Below, piece by piece: positions 22,120 through 54,600 of a stretch of 64,000 nt of DNA; positions within the stretch are counted from its first letter, which is position 1; each line of letters starts with the position of its first letter. Origin of the DNA: Mobula hypostoma (Eukaryota); contig NC_086108.1 of NCBI RefSeq assembly GCF_963921235.1, forward strand, positions 81,532,001 through 81,596,000, written 5' to 3'. A program made the translations under genes and the position numbers. Under the pieces are notes generated by a model. The model had not been told where the DNA came from, ran no database searches, and was given only the letters and a program-made list of their open reading frames with translations.

Positions 22120-22722
22120 TAGACCAGCAGAGCTTAAATCAAGATGAACTAAAATATTTAATATGATGCAAAATAAGACTTATGAAATAAAACAACGTTC
22201 AGGAAACAAAGCAAAAAGATAGAATGTAGAACATTGAAGAGTCTAGCACAGAAAGAGTTCCTTATATTATATTTCTTCTATTTAAATGTTCCGTGGGTTA
22301 ACAGTAAAGGATCATATTCTGGAAGAACTGGAGAACTTTTATTTACAATAATAAACAAATGTGTCTCAACCCCGCCATGTGCTGAAACATTCTGGCAAAC
22401 CCCGCACATGCTCAGTGCTGTCCAATCAGATACTGGCACGTCTTTGCACGTGATATCACCACACCTTCCCTTCCTTAAAAAGAAAAAATAAATAACAACA
22501 TTAATCAAAGCAAAGACATAATTCAACAAGTCTCAATCAGTCTCTCAGTGGGTTTACGAACATGAGTAGACCTTCTAAGTGGTACACACAGGTCTTGCGT
22601 TTCCTTGTTATTATTTACATGTTTTGTCCCGTCTGCACCAGTTAACTGAATCTCTGAAGAATCACATCTTCTTTTCCTTAAAAAGAAAAACAAATAACAA
22701 CATTAACCAATAAACAAATCAG

Positions 22723-24325
22723 CTAACGGAAACTCTGAAGTTGGCTCTTCACTATCTGAGCCATGACCCTTTTCTTTTTCTTCTTCTTTTCTGCTTTAAG
22801 CTTTTCTTTATGTATCTCAACTAAACTTTTTGGTATACTCTCACATGCCTCTTGGTTAGAATCTGGAATTTCAGGTAAGCAGTTCACACTATCCTCCTCA
22901 GCAATCTGCTTCCCTGCTTCTGTTTGGACTGTATCTTTCCTAATACCTTCCACTTCCATTTGTAATGAAATATGAATCATCTTTTCTTCATCTCATTCAT
23001 TCATTAACTGTGAAATCTCTTTTTTATGCTGTGACTTCATCATTTCAATAAAACTTCTCAATTCCTTTACTTGTGCTTTCACTTCTTCCTTATACTTTGC
23101 CCACTGTGAACGTTCTTGCTCTAGATGGTGATTATACTGTATCTCATATTCTCTCAGTCTCTCTTTCATTATCGCTTGCATTGAAGCAACCTCTTCCTGC
23201 TGTTGCTTTTTCATATCACCAATTGCCTCCTGTTTGGTCGTCTCAGACACTGCAGCTACTGCTTTTATATTCTTCATGTCAGCACTTTCATAAAGCACAT
23301 CTATATAAAATTCCTCACGTTCATCTTCAATCACTGCATTTACTTGTTTCATTTCATTTTCCTTCTTTCTACTTCTACAACAGCATGAAAAACGATTAAT
23401 CTTACCGCAGCTGTAGCAAAGTTTGCCATATGCGAAACACTGACTTAGATGGTGTTCCCGCGCACAGCGATCACGACTTTTCTTTTCAAATGCCGTCTTG
23501 CTCTCCATCGATTTTGTCAACGTATTATTATACTTCTTGATATAAAGAAGAGGAAAAATAGCCCTTAACTCGGCAGTGGAGTTATTGGGGCACCGTCTTT
23601 TGACAGTGTTTCCGTAGCAAGCTATTCTTGTTTTTATTAGGCCGAGTTGCTAGCTCGACGCTCAACTCGACTTGGATTTGAACTCTGGAACCTTCGCTCC
23701 GGAGTCCGGCGCTGATATTATTGTGCCACCAAGCGGGACATTTCTTGCTATATTCGCGCTTTTTATCAGCATTTACATTAAAGTTTTCAACAAAAACCTC
23801 TTCAGCCTGTGACATTACGGTCTCAGAATCTTTGCAGAGCACAAAAGCTTTTTCGAAATTTAAATCTTGCTCTCTCAACAGCCTTTCTCTCAGTGCATTA
23901 TCTCAAATGCCTCAAACAAGTCTATCTTTAATAAGAGAGTCTGTGAGCAATCCAAACTCGCACGTTCTACTACACTTTCTTAACTCCATAACATACTGAT
24001 CAATCGTTTCAGCAATCCTTTGCACACATGTGAAGAATTTATATCGGTCATATGTTAAGTTCTGCTTAGGTAAACAAAATACTTCAAATCTGTCCATTAT
24101 GGACTTTAAATTGAAATTATCTCCATCTTCAAAGACAAAATTATTATATACCTCTACTGCGTCATTCCTGATTACATGGAGCAGAAGCGCAGCTTTGGTT
24201 TTTTCTGATTTCTCTTCATAATCGATCACTGATAAGTACAGTTCAAACTGTTGCTTGAAGATCCTTCAATTCTCTGCTACATTCCCAGTCAGCTGAAGTT
24301 TTGGTAGGAGTTGTAAACCTTCCAT
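22723..24325 (-). pseudogene. Disrupted chimeric ORF: Gag + rabaptin (RABEP1/2)-like + SH3KBP1-like + SLU7-like segments
   Basis: ATG 24325 and ORFs 24229 and 23878 share one frame. After removing the SINE plus one TSD, ORFs 23520 and 22980 continue it. Only four point stops (24268, 23914, 23905, 22995). Gag motifs LTGNVAEN.RIFKQQF, LRERLLRE.DL and a degenerate double Zn-knuckle. Confidence 0.85.
23545..23737 (-). mobile_element. Short tRNA-like SINE inserted in the gag
   Basis: A-box-like TGGCACAAT and B-box GAGTTCAAATCC. Degenerate 15-bp TSD at 23530-23544 and 23738-23752 (12/15 match). Confidence 0.75.
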
Positions 24326-24603
24326 ATTACTGTTTGCAGTTCGAACTTATTTCCTTCTCTTTTTTTTTCGATTATCTTCGATTCTTGATTCTCAATTCTC
24401 CCGTATCATTCTTCCAGAAGCACTTCTGACGCCATGTTATATTTCTTCTATTTAAACGTTCCGTGGGTTAACAGTAAAGAATCGTATTCTGGAAGAATTA
24501 GAGAACTTTTATTTACAGTAATAAATAAATATGTCTTAACCCCGTGCATGCTCAGTGCTGTCCAATCATGTACTGGCACATCATTGCACGTGATATCACC
24601 ACA

Positions 24604-25120
24604 CCTTCAGCTCATCATGTCTATGCCAAGCATTGATGTCAATGTAAACTAATTCCTTCTGCTGCACATGAACGTAACTCTCTTTTGCCTGTTTAAATGC
24701 CACTGTCTGTGCTTCTATCATCTCACCTGGCAACTATTCCCTGCACTTGTGTAAAACGTTTACCTTTGTAAATCTCCTTTAAACTTTCCCCCCTTACATT
24801 AAAACTCTAGTATATGACATTTCCACACTGGAAATACAACACTGACTATCTACCCATATCTATACCACTCCGAATTTTATATCTTTCTACCAAGTTGCCC
24901 CTCAGCCTTTGATACTCCAATGAAAACAATCCAACTCTCCTTCTATCCAATGCACTCCAACCCAGGAACATGCTGGTGAACATCTTCTGACCCCTCTCCA
25001 AAGCCTTCACATTCTTACTATGGTGTGGTGACAGAAATGCGCAGATCTGTGCGAAGGTCCCAGCAATCTCCTCGTTTGCTTCCTTTAGTATTCCAGGATA
25101 GATCCCATCAAGCCCTGGGG
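24604..25120 (-). mobile_element. CR1 LINE fragments
   Basis: SPGLDGIYPGILKE and GLFSLEYQRLRGNLVERYKI remnants. Confidence 0.75.
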
Positions 25121-26226: not shown

Positions 26227-28478
26227 ATAGAAACATAGAAACATAGAAAATAGGTGCAGGAGTAGGCCATTCGGCCCTTCGAGCCTGCACCACCATTTAT
26301 TATGATCATGGCTGATCATCCAACTCAGAACCCCGCCCCAGCCTTCCCTCCATACCCCCTGACCCCTGTAGCCACAAAGGCCATATCTAACTCCCTCTTA
26401 AATATAGCCAATGAACTGGCCTCAACAGTTTCCTGTGGCAGAGAATTCCACAGATTCACCACTCTCTGTGTGAAGTTGTTTTTCCTAATCTCGGTCCTAA
26501 AAGGCTTCCCCTCTATCCTCAAACTGTGACCCCTCGTTCTGGACTTCCCCAACATCGGGAACAATCTTCCTGCATCTAGCCTGTCCAATCCCTTTAGGAT
26601 CTTATACGTTTCAATCAGATCCCCCCTCAATCTTCTAAATTCCAACGAGTACAAGCCCAGTTCATCCAGTCTTTCTTCATATGAAAGTCCTGCCATCCCA
26701 GGAATCAATCTGGTGAACCTTCTTTGTACTCCCTCTATGGCAAAGATGTCTTTCCTCAGATTAAGGGACCAAAACTGCACACAATACTTCAGGTATGGTC
26801 TCACCAAGGCCTTGTACAACTGCAGTAGTGCCTCCCGGCTCCTGTACTCGAATCCTCTCGCTATAAATGCCAGCATACCATTCACCTTTTTCACCGCCTG
26901 CTGTACCTGCATGCCCACTTTCAATGACTGGTGTATAATGACACCCAGGTCTCGTTGCACCTCCCCTTTTCCTAATCGGCCACCATTCAGATAATAATCT
27001 GTTTTCCTATTTTTGCCACCAAAGTGGATAACTTCACATTTATCCACACTAAATTGCATCTGCCATGAATTTGCCCACTCGCCCAACCTATCCAAGTCAC
27101 CTTGCATCCTCTTAGCATCCTCCTCACTGCTAACACTGCCACCCAGCTTCGTGTCATCCGCAAACTTGGAGATGCTGCATTTAATTCCCTCATCCAAGTC
27201 ATTAATATATATTGTAAACAACTGGGGTCCCAGCACTGGGCCTTGCGGTACCCCACTAGTCACCGCCTGCCATTCTGAAAAGGTCCCGTTTATTCCCACT
27301 CTTTGCTTCCTGTCTGCTAACCAATTCTCCACCCACACCAATACCTTACCCCCAATACCGTGTGCTTTAAGTTTGCACACTAATCTCCTGTGTGGGACCT
27401 TGTCAAAAGCCTTTTGAAAATCCAAATATACCACATCCACTGGTTCTCCCCTATCCACTCTACTAGTTACATCCACAAAAAATTCTATGAGATTCGTCAG
27501 ACATGATTTTCCTTTCACAAATCCATGCTGACTTTGTCCGATCATTTCTCCGCTTTCCAAATGTGCTGTTATCACATCCTTGATAACTGACTCCAGTAGT
27601 TTCCCCACCACCGACGTTAGGCTAACCGGTCTATAATTCCCCGGTTTCTCTCTCCCTCCTTTTTTAAAAAGTGGAGTTACATTAGTCACTCTCCAATCCT
27701 CAGGAATTAGTCCAGAATCTAACGAGTTTTGAAAAATTATCACTAATGCATCCACTATTTCTTGGGCTACTTCCTTAAGCACTCTAGGATGCAGACCATC
27801 TGGCCCTGGGGATTTATCTGCCTTCAATCCCTTCAATTTACCTAACACCACTTCCCTACTAACATGTATTTTGCTCAGTTCCTCCATCTCACTGGACCCT
27901 CTGTCCCCTACTATTTCTGGAAGATTATTTATGTCCTCCTTAGTGAAGACAGAACCAAAGTAATTATTCAATTGGTCTGCCATGTCCTTGCTCCCCATAA
28001 TCAATTCACCTGTTTTTGTCTGCAGGGGACCTACATTTGTCTTTATCAGTCTTTTCCTTTTTACATATCTATAAAAGCTTTTACAGTCCGTTTTTATGTT
28101 CCCTGCCAGTTTTCTCTCATAATCTTTTTTCCCCTTCCTAATTAAGCCCTTTGTCCTCCTCTGCTGAACTCTGAATTTCTCCCAGTCCTCAGGTGAGCCA
28201 CTTTCTCTGGCTAATTTGTATGCTTCTTCTTTGGAATTGATACTATCCCTAATTTCTCTTGTCAGCCACGGGTGCACTACCTTCCTTGATTTATTCTTTT
28301 GCCAAACTGGGATGAACAATTGTTGCAGTTCATCCATGCAACCTTTAAATGCTTGCCATTGCATATCCACCGTCAATCCTTGAAGTGTCATTTGCCAGTC
28401 TATCTTAGCTAATTCACGTCTCATACCTTCAAAGTTACCCCTCTTTAAGTTCAGAACTTTTGTTTCTGAATTAACTAT
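26227..28478 (-). mobile_element. Young 5'-truncated CR1 LINE
   Basis: (CATAGAAA)n tail, TSD GGGTTAC at 26220-26226 and 28479-28485, uninterrupted ORF2 segment. Confidence 0.97.
26325..28424 (-). CDS. CR1 ORF2 reverse transcriptase (N-truncated, no endonuclease)
   Basis: 699-aa open frame with KSPGPDG, NYRPVSLTS, QHGF, YLDFQKAFDKV, GVPQGPVLGP and KFADDTKL. Confidence 0.95.
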   Translation of the reverse strand: MRRELAKIDWQMTLQGLTVDMQWQAFKGCMDELQQLFIPVWQKNKSRKVVHPWLTREIRDSINSKEEAYKLARESGSPEDWEKFRVQQRRTKGLIRKGKKDYERKLAGNIKTDCKSFYRYVKRKRLIKTNVGPLQTKTGELIMGSKDMADQLNNYFGSVFTKEDINNLPEIVGDRGSSEMEELSKIHVSREVVLGKLKGLKADKSPGPDGLHPRVLKEVAQEIVDALVIIFQNSLDSGLIPEDWRVTNVTPLFKKGGREKPGNYRPVSLTSVVGKLLESVIKDVITAHLESGEMIGQSQHGFVKGKSCLTNLIEFFVDVTSRVDRGEPVDVVYLDFQKAFDKVPHRRLVCKLKAHGIGGKVLVWVENWLADRKQRVGINGTFSEWQAVTSGVPQGPVLGPQLFTIYINDLDEGIKCSISKFADDTKLGGSVSSEEDAKRMQGDLDRLGEWANSWQMQFSVDKCEVIHFGGKNRKTDYYLNGGRLGKGEVQRDLGVIIHQSLKVGMQVQQAVKKVNGMLAFIARGFEYRSREALLQLYKALVRPYLKYCVQFWSLNLRKDIFAIEGVQRRFTRLIPGMAGLSYEERLDELGLYSLEFRRLRGDLIETYKILKGLDRLDAGRLFPMLGKSRTRGHSLRIEGKPFRTEIRKNNFTQRVVNLWNSLPQETVEASSLAIFKRELDMAFVATGVRGYGGKAGAGF

Positions 28479-29668
28479 GGGTTACGGGTTTGATGTTTTC
28501 ACTGCCGTATCAGGGTGAGTGACCTGTTAGTTTCCATGCGAGGAAGAGGTTGGTTTTGCAGTTTGTGAGTTTTGTTTCTTTTTCTTTTGCGTGCAGGGGG
28601 GTGGGTGTGGTGGTTGATGTCTCTTCTTTTAACGACTTTCATGACTTTTCTGTATTTTATGTCTCTCTGAAGAAGACCAACCTCAGGGGTGTATTCTGCG
28701 TGCATGCTTTGATAACAAAATGAACCTTTGAACCTTTGACTTGTGATGGAATAGTTCCAAATCACTGGGTATATTGAAGGCAGGAACGGGTAGACTTTTG
28801 ATTACAAAAGGAATCAGGGAATATGTGCTTAATTCAGGAAAGTGGTGTTGAGGTAAAATATCACTGAGTTGGCAAGGCACCGGGTAAGGCTGAATGGTCT
28901 ACACTTCCTTCTGTTTCTTAACTCATGTAATGATATTAACTTAAGCCATCAAATTTCAACCAAGTTATAACTGCCTGCAATCTAATTCTCTCTCTCACTA
29001 CATAGTTCATCCTTCATCATGCTGTTTTTGTGTAGCTTCTTTTTTTGTCATTAACTGCAATTCTCAGTCAAGATTGGGGTATGATGTAATCAAGTGACTA
29101 ATCTAATAACTAGTTGATGATTAACTGTTTAATAGCAACATATATTACAAACTAGAAAAAAGAGCCGTCAATTCCAATAAATGTTTAGCCAGTATGTAAA
29201 TTAAGTTACCAGAAAGTTAGAAAATGATTCTTCGTTTTCTTGGAAAAACTGCAGTAAATCATACAAGTTGAAGTTAATAGATAACATTTTGCTAATGGCT
29301 GCTATTTCAATTGCGAAAGTCGCATTCATTAAAGATTGTTTAATATTTTTGCAAAATAATTCATCTTATTAGGAGCCAATGATCCGGAGGGAGGTTTCTG
29401 TTTTGTTTCAACAGGCTGGTGTAATAGGTAGAGTAGCAGCTCTAACAACCCAGGGTCCATCCTCACTTCCAAAGCTCCCTTTGTGGAATTTGTTTGTTTC
29501 CTCTTTAACTGGATGGTCTTTCCTCCGGGGCATCTGCTTTCCTCCCACATGCAAAAATGTGCCGGCTGGTTGGTTAAGTGGCAATTGTAATTGTGCTTTG
29601 TGTAGGAAGGCAGTTGGAGAATTGGTGTGGGGTGAAGGGTATCACAGAGTAGATCACTGGTAAGGGAG

Positions 29669-48427: not shown

Positions 48428-48770
48428 ATAGAACATGAATATAGAACATAGAATTGTACAGCACAGTACAGGCCCTTCGGCCCACAATGTTGTGCCGACC
48501 CTCAAACCCTGCCTCCCATATAACCCCCCACCTTAAATTCCTCCATATACCTGTCTAGTAGTCTCTTAAACTTCACTAGTGTATCGGCCTCCACTACTGA
48601 CTCAGGCAGTGCATTGCACGCACCAACCACTCTCTGAGTAAAAAACCTTCCTGTAATATCCCCCTTGAACTTCCCACCCCTTACCTTAAAGCCATGTCCT
48701 CTTGTATTGAGCAGTGGTTCCCTGGGGAAGAGGCACTGACTATCCACTCTATCTATTCCTCTTAATATCT
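48428..48770 (-). mobile_element. CR1 3' end, near-identical to the 3' end of 58587-60423
   Basis: LLNTRGHGFKVRGGKFKGDI.GRFFTQRVVGA is shared; (ATAGAAC)n tail. Confidence 0.9.
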
Positions 48771-49827
48771 TAATACTGTTACGTACCCCGTAACTGGGTT
48801 GCCAAACCAGCAGAAATGGATCACTCAGTTGGAGTCTGGAGTACTAGAACTAAGAAAGTTTTATTAAAGAAACAAGCAACACAGTAATCGAAAGGATAAT
48901 AAATGCAACAATTCAACAATGATAACCACACATGTGCACAGAATTAAGATAACAGCATCAATCAAGCTCTATCGTTGTCTAGGGGTAAATGACCAATTTC
49001 AAAATGACTCAAAGTTCAGTCCAGTTTGTAGTTCAGTTCGCAGTAATCGTTGCCATGGCGATGGACAAGGTGGGGGAAGAGAGACAGAATAGGAACAACT
49101 GATCATTCAGAACACTGCTTCACTCACAGACCAGCGGGATGGCTCACAGACCAGCGAGATGGCTCACAAACAGCTTTTGGGCAGGTCCTTGGTGATGTCA
49201 CCTGAGGTCACCGACTGTGACCCCTCCTCCAGATGCGGTCGATCCTCTGCAGTGAACCCGGCACCCAGGCAAGGGCGGACACACACCGGGTTCCCGCTGA
49301 TCGTACCTTTCCACCCTTGTCGTTGTCCGATACTTCTCACCCACTCGTGAGAAGCGCACCGCTTCCAGGGTCTCGTTACCTCGGGTGGCGTGTGTCCCTG
49401 TCTTAGCGAACCTGTCCCTTTTTATCCCCCTGCTGGGGTATCGCCTGTCCATCACTTCAAACAGTTCAGGGTTCAAAGGGGGGAGCCGCTCCAGACAGCT
49501 CTCTCTCCCACATCCCTTCATTACACATCTCCAGACGCTGCTCCATTGTTCCTTATCTCTCCTTCCCCTGAGGGCAGGTGGCAGACCAACTGCTGATGCC
49601 ACTGATGCTAGCCCAGGCCAGCAAACATCTTAATTTTATGTGTATTCTTGTAACACTTCCCCCCTTTAAGGATTTTTACCGGGAGGTAAAAATTACAAAC
49701 ATGACTACATTATCTGATACATACACAATATACATCTTTAACAGTTATTTAGCTAATACAGAGAATTTGAAGCTGTCAACACCTTGACAGACAGTCATCA
49801 CATTTTCTGTTCCTTTTACACGTGTTA

Positions 49828-50376
49828 TTAATAATCCCTTAGACCAGGCTCCAACTCAGCAAACTTCATAGTGGCCAAAAACACTGATGAATTGCGACCA
49901 ATGTAACCTCTCATTTGGTTTTGTCCCGGACCACAACAACAAGGGTCGTCCCATTCCGACTCAATTTTCTCTCGCAAGGGCTTAGTAGGAGGGGGACGGG
50001 TATTGACCGCAGAGTTATTGCAAAACTTCCTGCAGTACCCCACCATCTCCAAGAGCCTTCTGAGGGCCCTCTTGTCTATCGGGGTTGGGAGGTCAGCGAT
50101 AGCCTGCACTGTAGCTTGCATCACTGCCAGCTGCCCCTGTGTCACCACAATTCCCAGGTAAGTGACCCTTGTGTGGCCGAATTCATTTTTTTCAAGGTTC
50201 ACTATCAAGCTGGCTTCAGACAGCCGTATTAAATTGCCAATACACACCTCTGTGTTCATCAGCCCTTTAGTCACTGAATTACTCAAAAAATATGGGTGTT
50301 GTTTACTTGGCTGCCCTATTGTAACCACAATCACCCAAGTCCCAGTTCTTTGCATTTCCTCGGGACAATCAAACAC
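49828..50376 (-). pseudogene. Degenerate RT remnant (no YxDD)
   Basis: KQHPY and LSEASLIVNLEKNEFGHTRVTYLG...LRRLLEMVGYCRKFC match the RT N-flank and thumb; the catalytic core is absent. Confidence 0.85.
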
Positions 50377-52748
50377 ATGGGTGCGAGTCGTTTAATTACT
50401 CCTTCGGGGATTAAGGGAGAGACCTTATCAGTAGACCTGGCCAAAACAATAGCCTTCTCCCATCTGACCGATCCCATCCTAATCTTTTCAAAATGGTTCT
50501 TTTCTCTTATCAGGGGGCCCCTAGCTTCATTGATTTCCACGCTAACACCGACTAGGTTTGTTAGCATATCAAAAGCCGGTGACCGTCTCAGTTCGCGTCG
50601 GTCATGATCAATAACATTTTTCCCCCTGGGCAGCCGGTAAATCTCTTTCATGATTCCACCAACTGTTTCCTCCAGCACCGCAAAATGTCCACCGGGGGGT
50701 ACCTCGTGGGCCATGTTAAAAACCTCATCCCCATAACTCTTTTGCACCACCCCCCACTCCTCATCTGCGGATGCTGTACTTGATTTCCCTTTCTTCCTTA
50801 GCACTTCCTCATCCGCACAATAGCTTGTCAAGGCTGTGTCAGAGAGAGCGGTCTCGGCAAAAACCATCAGCCCCTCGTCTCGCTCCTGCGTCTGCACAAA
50901 TTCTTTCCTGGCTACTGCTACGTCCGTCCCAGCTCCCTCACTACCTCTTATCTCACTACACCCTGTCTCATACAAGGTTGGCAGAAATGTTTCAGCCAAA
51001 TTCACCATCGCGGGCGGGGCCTCCATGCTGGCAGGCTGACCCGTCAATCTCACGACTGGGAACACGATTCCTCCGGCGATGTCATTACCGAGCAAGACTT
51101 CCACGTCTTTCATCGGTAATTCGGACCTCACCCCGATCGTGACTAGTCCAGAGACCAGGTTGCTCTGTAAGTGTATCTGGTGCAAAGGGACTGGCTCTGT
51201 CCCTTCCCCAACACCTTTGACCTCTACCTCCCCAGTCTGGGTCTCTGAGCTAAACTCTAATACACTCTTCAGTATTAGTGACTGACACGCTCCCGTGTCT
51301 CTCCAGATCCGCACTGGAACTGGTTTTAACCTCTTTTTCACTGACACCAGTCCGGCCGAGATAAACCTCTCGCGCCCTTCCTGGACTTTTTCAGACCTGT
51401 CCTTCCCTAGCGGTTCGCTTAACAGCTCAATACAGCCATTCAAAATTTCCGCTTTTCCTTTCCCCGTCTCCTTCCTTGGGGCAAAGCACCTGGACGCAAA
51501 GTGTCCGACTTTCCCACAATTATAACAGACGACCCCAGGAGACTTCCTACCAGACTGCTCCCGGTCTACCTTATCCTTTTCACTAGTCCCCGGCTTACTT
51601 TCTGACTTTTCCAGCGGACTCTCCCCTCCGTCCTGACTACCCTTCTGGTAGCCTTTACTCGGGGCAAACTTCATTTTATGCGTCAACGCATACTCATCCG
51701 CTAACTTAGCAGTTGCGGCTAACGTGGCTGCCTCTTTCTCATCGAGGTAGGGTCTCATACCCTCAGGGACACAACCTTTAAACTGCTCAATCAGAATCAG
51801 CTGCAGCAGTCTGTCATAATCCCCCTCTACCCCTTTCGAGGCGCACCAACGCTCACAATATGTTTGCATCTCGCGAGCAAACTCCAAATACGTGCAGTCC
51901 CACTGTTTCCTCGCATTCCGGAACCTCTGCCGGTATGCCTCCGGGACCAACTCATAAATCCTGAGGATGGCCTCCTTCACCACCTCATACTTCTGGGCAT
52001 CTTCCGCGGATAAAGCGGAGTAAGCTTGTTGGGCCTTCCCTTTCAGTACACTCTGAAGTAAGACAACCCACTTATCCCTCGGCCATTCCTGACTTATGGC
52101 CACTTTTTCGAAATGGAGAAAGTACCGATCCACATCGGTATCGTCAAATGGGGGAACCAGCCTAACCTCCTGGGTCGCCCGGAACCCTCCACCTTGGTTC
52201 GGCACGAGCCCCTGCTCGGCCCTTATCTTTAACTTCTCCAGCTCAAATTCCCTTTCCCTCTGTTTCTCCTCTCTCTCCAACTGTCTGTCCCTCTCTCTCT
52301 CTTCTCTCTCCAACTGTCTTTCTCTCTCTTGCCTTTCTACCTCTTTCTCTCTCTCCCGCCTTTCTAACTCTCTCTCTTTCTCCCGCCTTTCTAACTCTCT
52401 CTCTTTCTCCTGCCTTTCTAACTCTCTCTCTTTCTCCTGCCTTTCTAACTGCTTCTCTTCGTGTTCTAACTGCCGTACCCGGAACTCGTGCTCGAGTCTC
52501 AGTTTTTCAAGCTGTACCTGTACCGCGTCTCCAGCAGGTTTTTCAATAGACACCTCCCCCAGCTCACCTTGGGGAAACACACCTTTAGATACATAGTGCT
52601 CTACAATAGCTCTGTGTATCTCCTCTCTCCTCATTGTCGACTTCACCTTAGCAAGATTCACCCGTTTTGCCACAGCTATCAATTCCGATTTCCTGGCATC
52701 CTCTAATGCCTCCAAGGTCGGTGCCTTTATAAATTCCTCAACCTCCAT
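50331..52748 (-). CDS. Gag (SCAN-like capsid, CCHC knuckle) - aspartic protease - pol remnants
   Basis: 805-aa open frame: E/R/K repeat, VPEAYRQRFR...ILIEQFK, CYNCGKVGHFASRC, RDTGACQSL, LLGND, and integrase Zn-finger remnant AHEVPPGGHF. Confidence 0.92.
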   Translation of the reverse strand: MEVEEFIKAPTLEALEDARKSELIAVAKRVNLAKVKSTMRREEIHRAIVEHYVSKGVFPQGELGEVSIEKPAGDAVQVQLEKLRLEHEFRVRQLEHEEKQLERQEKERELERQEKERELERREKERELERREREKEVERQERERQLEREERERDRQLEREEKQREREFELEKLKIRAEQGLVPNQGGGFRATQEVRLVPPFDDTDVDRYFLHFEKVAISQEWPRDKWVVLLQSVLKGKAQQAYSALSAEDAQKYEVVKEAILRIYELVPEAYRQRFRNARKQWDCTYLEFAREMQTYCERWCASKGVEGDYDRLLQLILIEQFKGCVPEGMRPYLDEKEAATLAATAKLADEYALTHKMKFAPSKGYQKGSQDGGESPLEKSESKPGTSEKDKVDREQSGRKSPGVVCYNCGKVGHFASRCFAPRKETGKGKAEILNGCIELLSEPLGKDRSEKVQEGRERFISAGLVSVKKRLKPVPVRIWRDTGACQSLILKSVLEFSSETQTGEVEVKGVGEGTEPVPLHQIHLQSNLVSGLVTIGVRSELPMKDVEVLLGNDIAGGIVFPVVRLTGQPASMEAPPAMVNLAETFLPTLYETGCSEIRGSEGAGTDVAVARKEFVQTQERDEGLMVFAETALSDTALTSYCADEEVLRKKGKSSTASADEEWGVVQKSYGDEVFNMAHEVPPGGHFAVLEETVGGIMKEIYRLPRGKNVIDHDRRELRRSPAFDMLTNLVGVSVEINEARGPLIREKNHFEKIRMGSVRWEKAIVLARSTDKVSPLIPEGVIKRLAPMCLIVPRKCKELGLG

Positions 52749-53731
52749 TTCTGCTGTTTGTCTTTTCTTTCTTTCGGGAATTTTAACCCAATCAATTTAC
52801 TCCGTCCCAAATTTAGCGTTCAAAATCCCGGACGAGCCCCCACTTATGTTACGTACCCCGTAACTGGGTTGCCAAACCAGCAGAAATGGATCACTCAGTT
52901 GGAGTCTGGAGTACTAGAACTAAGAAAGTTTTATTAAAGAAACAAGCAACACAGTAATCGAAAGGATAATAAATGCAACAATTCAACAATGATAACCACA
53001 CATGTGCACAGAATTAAGATAACAGCATCAATCAAGCTCTATCGTTGTCTAGGGGTAAATGACCAATTTCAAAATGACTCAAAGTTCAGTCCAGTTTGTA
53101 GTTCAGTTCACAGTAATCGTTGCCATGGCGATGGACAAGGTGGGGGAAGAGAGACAGAATAGGAACAACTGATCATTCAGAACACTGCTTCACTCACAGA
53201 CCAGCGGGATGGCTCACAGACCAGCGAGATGGCTCACAAACAGCTTTTGGGCAGGTCCTTGGTGATGTCACCTGAGGTCACCGACTGTGACCCCTCCTCC
53301 AGATGCGGTCGATCCTCTGCAGTGAACCCGGCACCCAGGCAAGGGCGGACACACACCGGGTTCCCGCTGATCGTACCTTTCCACCCTTGTCGTTGTCCGG
53401 TACTTCTCACCCACTCGTGAGAAGCGCACCGCTTCCAGGGTCTCGTTACCTCGGGTGGCGTGTGTCCCTGTCTTAGCGAACCTGTCCCTTTTTATCCCCC
53501 TGCTGGGGTATCGCCTGTCCATCACTTCAAACAGTTCAGGGTTCAAAGGGGGGAGCCGCTCCAGACAGCTCTCTCTCTCCCACATCCCTTCATTACACAT
53601 CTCCAGACGCTGCTCCATTGTTCCTTATCTCTCCTTCCCCTGAGGGCAGGTGGCAGACCAACTGCTGATGCCACTGATGCTAGCCCAGGCCAGCAAACAT
53701 CTTAATTTTATGTGTATTCTCGTAACAATAC

Positions 53732-54600
53732 TTACCACTAATACTACTACTACGTTGACTTAGGCCTAGGGGGCCGGCGTCGGGCACAATGACAGACTCT
53801 CCACTTCTCCCCCTCCCTCATCAGTGCGTTCAGTTCATCTACATTAGCCGCGCCGCTGTCTTCTAGGAGCGTGTTGACCATAGTCTTGGGAGGGTGCCAA
53901 GGGTTCCTCCTCCCACGCTTGGGCTCCCATATGATGACTAGGCTGGCAGGTAGCTCAGAGTGGCGTAGACAGTGCCCCGCTAGTTGCAGTCTTCTCGCCT
54001 CGATTTTAGTGGTGAGCATCGGTAGGTTGTTATAGAGCTCAACGTTCGTCATGTGCTGTTGCCAACTCACATCAAGAGCCATCCAGAGCATTCGTGTATA
54101 GCAACCATCTAGAGACTTTCGCATCGTCTTGGTGAGTGTCCACCTCTCGCATCCGTACGTGAGAATGGATTCTATGACTGCTATGAAAATCCTCTTTTTA
54201 AGCCGCTGGTCAGGTTCAACTTCCAGATTTCCTTCATGTCGTTCATAACCCTCCACGCCAGTGCCTTCCGTATCTTTATGTCCTTCTCTGAACTCATCAT
54301 TCTTGACCCAAGGTACTTGTAGTCAAAGACTTTCTTAATGGCATCATTCTCTACAGTCTTGAGAGTACTTTCTTCACAGTTAAACGCCATGTAGCATTTA
54401 GGTGAAGTCCAACATTATTGCACTCAATTTCCACTTTTGTCAGTAGCTGCTGTGTTTCCTCCATCTGGTCAGAGAGCAGGACTATGTCGTCTGCAAAATC
54501 GAGATCCGTGAGCGTAACTGACTGACCCTTTTGGTTCACCATGGTTTTATGGTAAAACCAAGCTTGTCATGATCTTTGGTAGCTTGACACAGAGCGTCAA
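53732..54600 (-). mobile_element. RTE/RTEX-type LINE, 5'-truncated
   Basis: LTDLDFADDIVLL, DYKYLGS, ESILTYGCERWTL, RRLQLAGHCLRH; (TAG)n tail. Confidence 0.9.

Follow-up and report, generated by a model that had tools for sequence, protein, structure and literature searches.

The window analysed here, 64,000 nucleotides of the Mobula hypostoma genome (NC_086108.1, positions 81,532,001 to 81,596,000), contains a 2.34 kb minus-strand element of the Ty3/Gypsy type in which pieces of three unlinked host genes, rabep1, sh3kbp1 and slu7, replace the protease-RT-RNase H-integrase core. We consider it likely, at a probability of about two in three, that these host exon pieces are the cargo of a non-autonomous Ty3/Gypsy element of which the frame-open, translated hybrids multiplied, with the cargo acting mainly as open-frame filler. 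The copy in the window is a late, protease-less derivative of a family whose capture is ancestral.

A preliminary description had placed a 66-residue segment of rabaptin at 23086-23283, and the segment is present there, on the minus strand and with the residues as quoted, enclosed in an open reading frame at 22993-23649. Its proposed nature, an N-terminal piece of rabaptin captured and fused to Gag, is borne out by a match to Pfam Rabaptin (PF03528, E 7e-27). The paralogue had been left between RABEP1 and RABEP2. Aligned without gaps, the segment is identical at 57/66 residues to ray RABEP1 (P0003), at 51-56/66 to five further ray and shark RABEP1 proteins and at 47/66 to Xenopus RABEP1, compared to 32-33/66 for four amphibian RABEP2 proteins. 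A protein search with the residues from 22996-23331 (among longer proteins) gave 59 hits from 182 candidates; ray and shark RABEP1 rank first (60-71% identity), ahead of amphibian RABEP2, while the part behind the rabaptin segment matched SH3KBP1. At the level of sequence, the donor is settled as RABEP1 rather than RABEP2. No host rabep2 gene surfaced in a strict genome search, the result list of which was filled by element copies, and its absence from the genome is not implied.

The rabep1 gene of the same genome lies on contig C71, where 80 kb around it was examined, and its exons match the Mobula RABEP1 protein P0003 nearly letter for letter, as befits a myliobatiform ray. The segment DNA is 92% identical to these exons, with 93.6% identity over 125 nt to the first exon of a pair and 89.8% over 88 nt to the next. 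The intron of ∼9 kb between the two is missing from the segment, removed exactly at its GT/AG borders (exon-exon junction 23163|23162). Host-derived rabep1 DNA spans 23077..23287 on the minus strand, slightly more than first described. This exact junction, the check suggested in the preliminary description, together with the others that bring the whole cargo to five, indicates that the capture was RNA-mediated.

The element is bounded by a 5-bp target-site duplication, with its 5′ half at 24604..24608 and its 3′ half at 22260..22264 (both on the minus strand, one mismatch between them), and 5-bp duplications are seen in many sister copies. The 5′ LTR (24435..24603, minus strand, TG...CA, 169 nt) is ∼30 nt shorter than the 199-nt 3′ LTR (22265..22463, minus strand), and the pair differs by 8.0%. 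Next to the 5′ LTR, on the same strand, is a primer-binding site (24421..24434), which may resemble the 3′ end of a tRNA-Leu; no tRNA genes were found in the window by ARAGORN. The gag region (23288..24325, minus strand, start at 24325) is of parent lineage B and consists of a capsid, a zinc-knuckle remnant and an acidic linker, and its Pfam PNMA match (E 0.0017) falls below the cut-off. The rabep1 piece directly follows the acidic linker, as first described, because the protease is deleted in the subfamily of the window. Downstream of the cargo, also on the minus strand, are a rearranged pol end and 3′ untranslated part (22477..22745), comprising a short integrase tail, a deletion into the 3′ UTR and a partial duplication, and a polypurine tract (22464..22476).

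This copy is dead. Its gag is broken by stops, frame breaks and a high-copy insert of ∼195 nt with an imperfect target duplication (23545..23739), which is absent from the scored sister copies; a premature stop (22993-22995) interrupts the sh3kbp1 piece and a 10-nt deletion the slu7 piece. The insert is SINE-like by its look, and an insert similar to it occurs at locus L140. Read depth over it far exceeds that of the element itself in two DNA runs and is highest in organism E. The element is also flanked by repeats, namely an inverted pair of ∼650 nt (21028-21648/43811-44463, 77%) and a direct pair of ∼200 nt (20186-20389/21908-22120, 68%). Elsewhere in the window, the minus strand holds a 718-aa open frame with a reverse transcriptase (26325-28481, E 2e-32), presumably a CR1-like LINE, related pieces of which recur in the window. 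A second LTR-type element lies on the minus strand at 48500-53800, with an 821-aa ORF (50331-52796) that contains an E/R/K repeat, a SCAN-like capsid (E 9e-13) and a zinc knuckle; its direct repeats (48777-49076/52847-53146, 100%, and 49499-49655/53571-53727, 99%) suggest a young insertion or a recent duplication.

Behind the rabep1 piece, 154 nt (22935..23088, minus strand) match three sh3kbp1 exons on contig C18 with two exact junctions (23024|23023 and 22960|22959) and encode the C-terminal coiled coil of CIN85. A 14-nt remnant of the element's own integrase end (22921..22934, minus strand) separates this piece from the next 175 nt (22746..22920, minus strand), which are slu7 (E 4.8e-15) and match three slu7 exons on contig C21, with junctions at 22900|22899 and 22816|22815. 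All three pieces lie in the sense direction. Short shared words mark the switch points, as read by eye from the host, parent and copy sequences: the rabep1 and sh3kbp1 pieces overlap by a 12-nt word, 10 positions of which are common to both host genes, and the joins of element to host share 5-8 nt. At the sh3kbp1-integrase join, loci L129, L131, L139, L141, L146, L148 and L149 carry a 14-nt reverse complement of the sequence that the parent has there, a small inversion made during the switch, and the frame is kept. Loci L038, L040-L046 and their kin, of the rabep1-sh3kbp1-rabep1 type, have their sh3kbp1 piece (net 43 codons) inserted at a 7-nt rabep1 word that was used twice; at the first switch of this type, read by eye, the two coils are in register in their hydrophobic spacing.

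The homologues of the protease-RT start found in a sister copy are Ty3/Gypsy polyproteins, whose Pfam domains place gag, protease, RT, RNase H and integrase in that order in one ORF without env. The parent, a putative member of the Mag clade to judge by the 'K02A2.6-like' names among the homologues and by the Gag motif, is 4.4 kb long and aligns in a single frame with P0061 over 1-1285; its RT starts after the protease, and its ORF closes with the integrase and a stop shortly before the PPT. Full-length parents were recovered for two lineages, at 11 of 12 loci for lineage A, none of the 12 with host stretches, and at 16 of 20 loci for lineage B, picked by the gag motif of the window's type. 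Locus L124 belongs to a different family and was excluded from the parent set.

Cargo and backbone have different histories. The gag genes of lineages A and B differ by a net dS of 0.43 and dN of 0.09, and yet the hybrids on lineage B carry cargo nearly identical to that of the rabep1-only and sh3kbp1-only elements on lineage A, with a cargo net dS between subfamilies of 0.002-0.022. A gag tree of 77 copies intersperses the one-gene types with lineage-A parents and sets the two- and three-gene types apart in a clade of their own (support 0.93-1.0), and the gag of the rabep1-sh3kbp1-rabep1 type equals that of lineage-B parents (net dS 0.003). We propose that rabep1 and sh3kbp1 were first captured separately, on lineage A, that their RNAs then recombined at the 12-nt word, and that the combined cargo was transferred to lineage B, where slu7 was captured at the integrase end and the protease was deleted last to give the type in the window. 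The simpler layouts lie on A, which suggests that the transfer ran from A to B. Each step would be a template switch of reverse transcriptase between co-packaged RNAs, described as an established mechanism for such chimeras in the sections of Tan et al. 2016 consulted (PMC5131818), and the products would have been copied by the enzymes of full-length parents. The gag of the window's type forms its own branch (dS 0.078, dN 0.025), longer than that of its cargo (dS 0.013-0.022), which points to an unsampled parent as readily as to selection in cis.

The family is large. The 91 loci with host pieces, which are the best-scoring hits rather than a random sample, reduce to 80 distinct ones: 11 with rabep1 only, 20 with sh3kbp1 only, 25 of the rabep1-sh3kbp1-rabep1 type, 23 of the window's rabep1-sh3kbp1-slu7 type (including one covered only over slu7) and one separate rabep1-sh3kbp1 hybrid. 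In the family as a whole, cargo layouts number at least five. Copy numbers were estimated with motifs that span a spliced junction, which the host gene cannot match; the rabep1 motif gave 202 hits against 54 for its reversed control, and the sh3kbp1 motif 365 against 35. With 42/59 known rabep1 copies and 59/68 known sh3kbp1 copies detected, the genome holds about 210 rabep1-bearing and about 380 sh3kbp1-bearing copies, overlapping sets for which both figures are likely low. The slu7 matches lie outside the host slu7 gene in 69 of 78 cases. First-look candidate numbers of 1054, 7427 and 3520 were rejected as copy numbers.

The dispersed copies have the same joins and their own target duplications, pointing to further copying as a non-autonomous element. 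The median divergence of LTR pairs is 8% in all four subfamilies (59 pairs), and the average distance of cargo copies from the host exons is 3-6% (9% for slu7). Net divergence of the subfamilies from the host is tiny (dN 0.001-0.009 for rabep1 and sh3kbp1), which suggests amplification soon after capture and makes any test for selection on residues weak. Gene annotations of Hemitrygon and Hypanus include element-type proteins (P0001, P0002, P0047), which suggests that the rabep1-sh3kbp1 hybrids either predate these ray lineages or are common to them. As for expression, two runs guessed to be RNA yielded short contigs only, four of them identical to the window copy at depth 3-7, and one contig from another organism, also from a run guessed to be RNA, bridges the sh3kbp1-slu7 join; strand and level are not readable from either. 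None of the runs listed in the search for expressed element sequence was recorded as RNA.

The frame of the junctions carries the main reading. With one full-length copy and the host stretches as references, we mapped every junction of 131 loci. Of the 21 junction clusters that recur in at least two loci, 20 keep the gag-pol frame, whereas single-copy junctions are in frame in 16 of 31 (Fisher p 0.0007). Curation removed five of the 21 multi-copy clusters that were not single inherited events: an out-of-frame cluster of three copies that belong to different subfamilies and disagree in their shifts, three clusters of two copies whose breakpoints differ, and one duplicate of another event. The remaining junctions, each common to three or more copies, are all in frame (16/16; Fisher p 0.0006 versus single-copy junctions). 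One more shared junction, in lineage-B cargo elements and outside the census, joins the integrase end to the 3′ UTR with a loss of ∼45 integrase codons, which shows that the frame need not reach the native stop and that the integrase tail is dispensable. Judging from these joins, what persists is a frame that stays open until a stop close to the 3′ end.

The reading that best accommodates these observations is that only hybrids with an RNA translated from gag through the cargo to such a stop would have multiplied. Two reasons can be envisaged: translation in cis may have favoured packaging, as reported for the mouse IAP 1-delta-1 element, or a premature stop may have destabilised the RNA. The cargo would then be mainly open-frame filler, the exact amino acids of which mattered little. 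In favour of this, we count the varied borders of the cargo, with rabep1 starting at three places and sh3kbp1 at four, and the fact that three unrelated donor genes could serve. One observation is not explained by filler. Among 32 aligned cargo-free elements (16 + 16, two of the first 16 being 3′ remnants only), none is a plain deletion derivative joining gag-protease to the tail, although a deletion of this kind could leave the frame intact and ought to form more readily than a capture.

The leading alternative, which we regard as doubtful though worth weighing, is that the captured helices themselves helped, such that Gag fused to the rabaptin and CIN85 coils oligomerised, or reached membranes or endosomes, better and favoured its own RNA. 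All three cargoes are charged, helical-type pieces, and two solved coiled coils match the CIN85 piece, 5ABS and the three-chain entry 2N64. Every multi-copy sh3kbp1 variant retains the coiled-coil core, while the proline-rich part upstream was trimmed repeatedly. The 0/32 result also speaks for helpful helices, as does the lineage-A tail motif: 24 of its 41 listed matches on three contigs carry cargo and 17 do not, the known ones having been assigned by hand from coordinates. Absence of plain deletions and retention of the core together make it possible that the cargo helped, as protein or as RNA. Against helper helices stand the three unrelated donors, one of them a splicing factor, and the protease kept by most subfamilies, which would probably cut the cargo off Gag; processing by the Ty3/Gypsy protease is established, and its extension to the cargo here is our inference. 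In addition, the RNA that codes for the E/K-rich cargo is purine-rich like the element (A content is 35-41% in all five stretches compared), which favours switches by itself.

The pattern of substitutions also fails to favour selected helices. Single-copy changes in 60 rabep1 copies number 112 nonsynonymous, 36 synonymous and 12 stops, where 0.69 : 0.25 : 0.06 is expected under neutrality, and the cargo variants present in five or more copies (16 nonsynonymous, 5 synonymous) have no deficit of amino-acid changes. The amino acids of the cargo drift neutrally, a comparison with little power in which constraint could be missed on the short internal branches. Between subfamilies, gag and protease are under purifying selection (net dN/dS 0.04-0.39), which we rejected as a sign of selection on a non-autonomous Gag; the low ratios are not creditable to the cargo elements, because full-length lineage-B parents share this gag. 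Six amino-acid differences fixed relative to host SLU7 are at least partly changes in the host, since the element agrees with the skate protein P0060 at two of the six sites.

A more improbable account dispenses with selection on the frame: switches at imperfect similarities between coding sequences would tend to fall in frame, and a few lucky founders would have been amplified. The words that these sequences share by chance keep the frame 40-46% of the time when exact and 47-58% when imperfect, and part of the sample came from protein searches, which favour long in-frame matches. Even at a rate of 0.6, however, 16 of 16 in frame has a probability of 0.0003, junctions first met in the frame-blind DNA and motif samples are likewise in frame, and lucky founders leave the modest frame rate of the single-copy junctions to be accounted for. 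Two further explanations are very improbable. A rabep1 processed pseudogene made by a LINE and inserted into an existing LTR element would fit the missing introns and the CR1-like LINEs with RT in the window, but the pieces come from inside the coding regions, lack 3′ UTR and poly(A) and are joined at shared words, and the replacement of ∼2.2-2.9 kb of pol at the joins, relative to full-length parents, refutes it. A domesticated gag-rabaptin fusion gene serving the host has the annotated Hemitrygon and Hypanus proteins in its favour, but each of these forms a cluster of one, the copies decay neutrally, and the window copy is broken in the ways described above.

The mechanism of capture was known already. 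According to the portions of Tan et al. 2016 available to us, partial mRNAs in animals replace part of an element ORF between two LTRs with microsimilarity at the joins, several parental genes can contribute to one locus, the longest ORF is often in frame, further non-autonomous copying occurs, and species hold 3-10 retrocopies with secondary copying of a few loci (PMC5131818). The ray family shares the intron-free internal mRNA piece, the ORF replacement, both LTRs, the microsimilarity and the non-autonomous copying, and by these DNA-level features it is classed as an LTR-mediated retrocopy in the sense of that paper. It differs from what those portions describe in its hundreds of copies, its at least five layouts and the exchange of cargo between two parent lineages, and in the comparison of inherited with private junctions, the inherited ones being more often in frame. 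The maize element Bs1, in the accounts partly available to us, likewise unites pieces of three unlinked host genes in the hybrid ORF of one LTR element; its 1-5 copies have identical switch points, and of its three pieces one is out of frame (PMC5131818, PMC13317346). In the ray family, by contrast, all three pieces are in frame, one- and two-donor intermediates survive as subfamilies, and the host is a vertebrate. The mouse IAP 1-delta-1 element, as far as the consulted part of its description goes, is non-autonomous, outbreeds its parent and encodes an in-frame gag-pol fusion reported to act in cis (PMC6466679). An in-frame fusion is also kept in the amplified ray form, but IAP 1-delta-1 is a plain deletion without host sequence, whereas the ray frame runs through host exons, and an effect in cis in the rays is suggested by the junction frames.

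In transducing retroviruses such as E26, with its Gag-Myb-Ets protein, spliced host pieces replace pol in frame with gag and the virus depends on a helper. The ray element differs in being env-less and germ-line, and neither selection on the host-derived protein nor a growth effect is apparent in it. It is a tentative idea that the captured coiled-coil exons function as a component of the parasite, that multiplication was confined to derivatives with them in frame with Gag, and that the cargo was passed as a cassette between lineages, with three genes shuffled into new fusion proteins hundreds of times; were it true, the family would be a retrotransposon counterpart of gene-transducing retroviruses, selected for germ-line copying. 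The freely accessible literature searched contains no published account of the ray rabep1-sh3kbp1-slu7 family, and what is new here are the copy numbers, the cargo exchange between lineages, the frame contrast and the 0/32 plain deletions.

The usual view of gene capture by LTR elements is of a rare accident that leaves a handful of copies; in this ray, the cargo subfamilies match or outnumber their full-length parents. The single segment in the window is one dead copy, and the interest lies in the family, its size, its exchange of cargo and its evidence for selection of an open frame. One-, two- and three-gene stages are all present in the genome, such that the order of exon shuffling can be read directly, and by comparing inherited with private junctions one can ask, in a natural experiment, whether a non-autonomous element spreads only if it is translated. 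For the annotation of ray genomes, gene models named 'RABEP1-like' or 'uncharacterized' (P0001, P0002, P0047) are element copies and not cellular genes, and reads of rabep1, sh3kbp1 and slu7 in rays can be mapped wrongly because of such copies.
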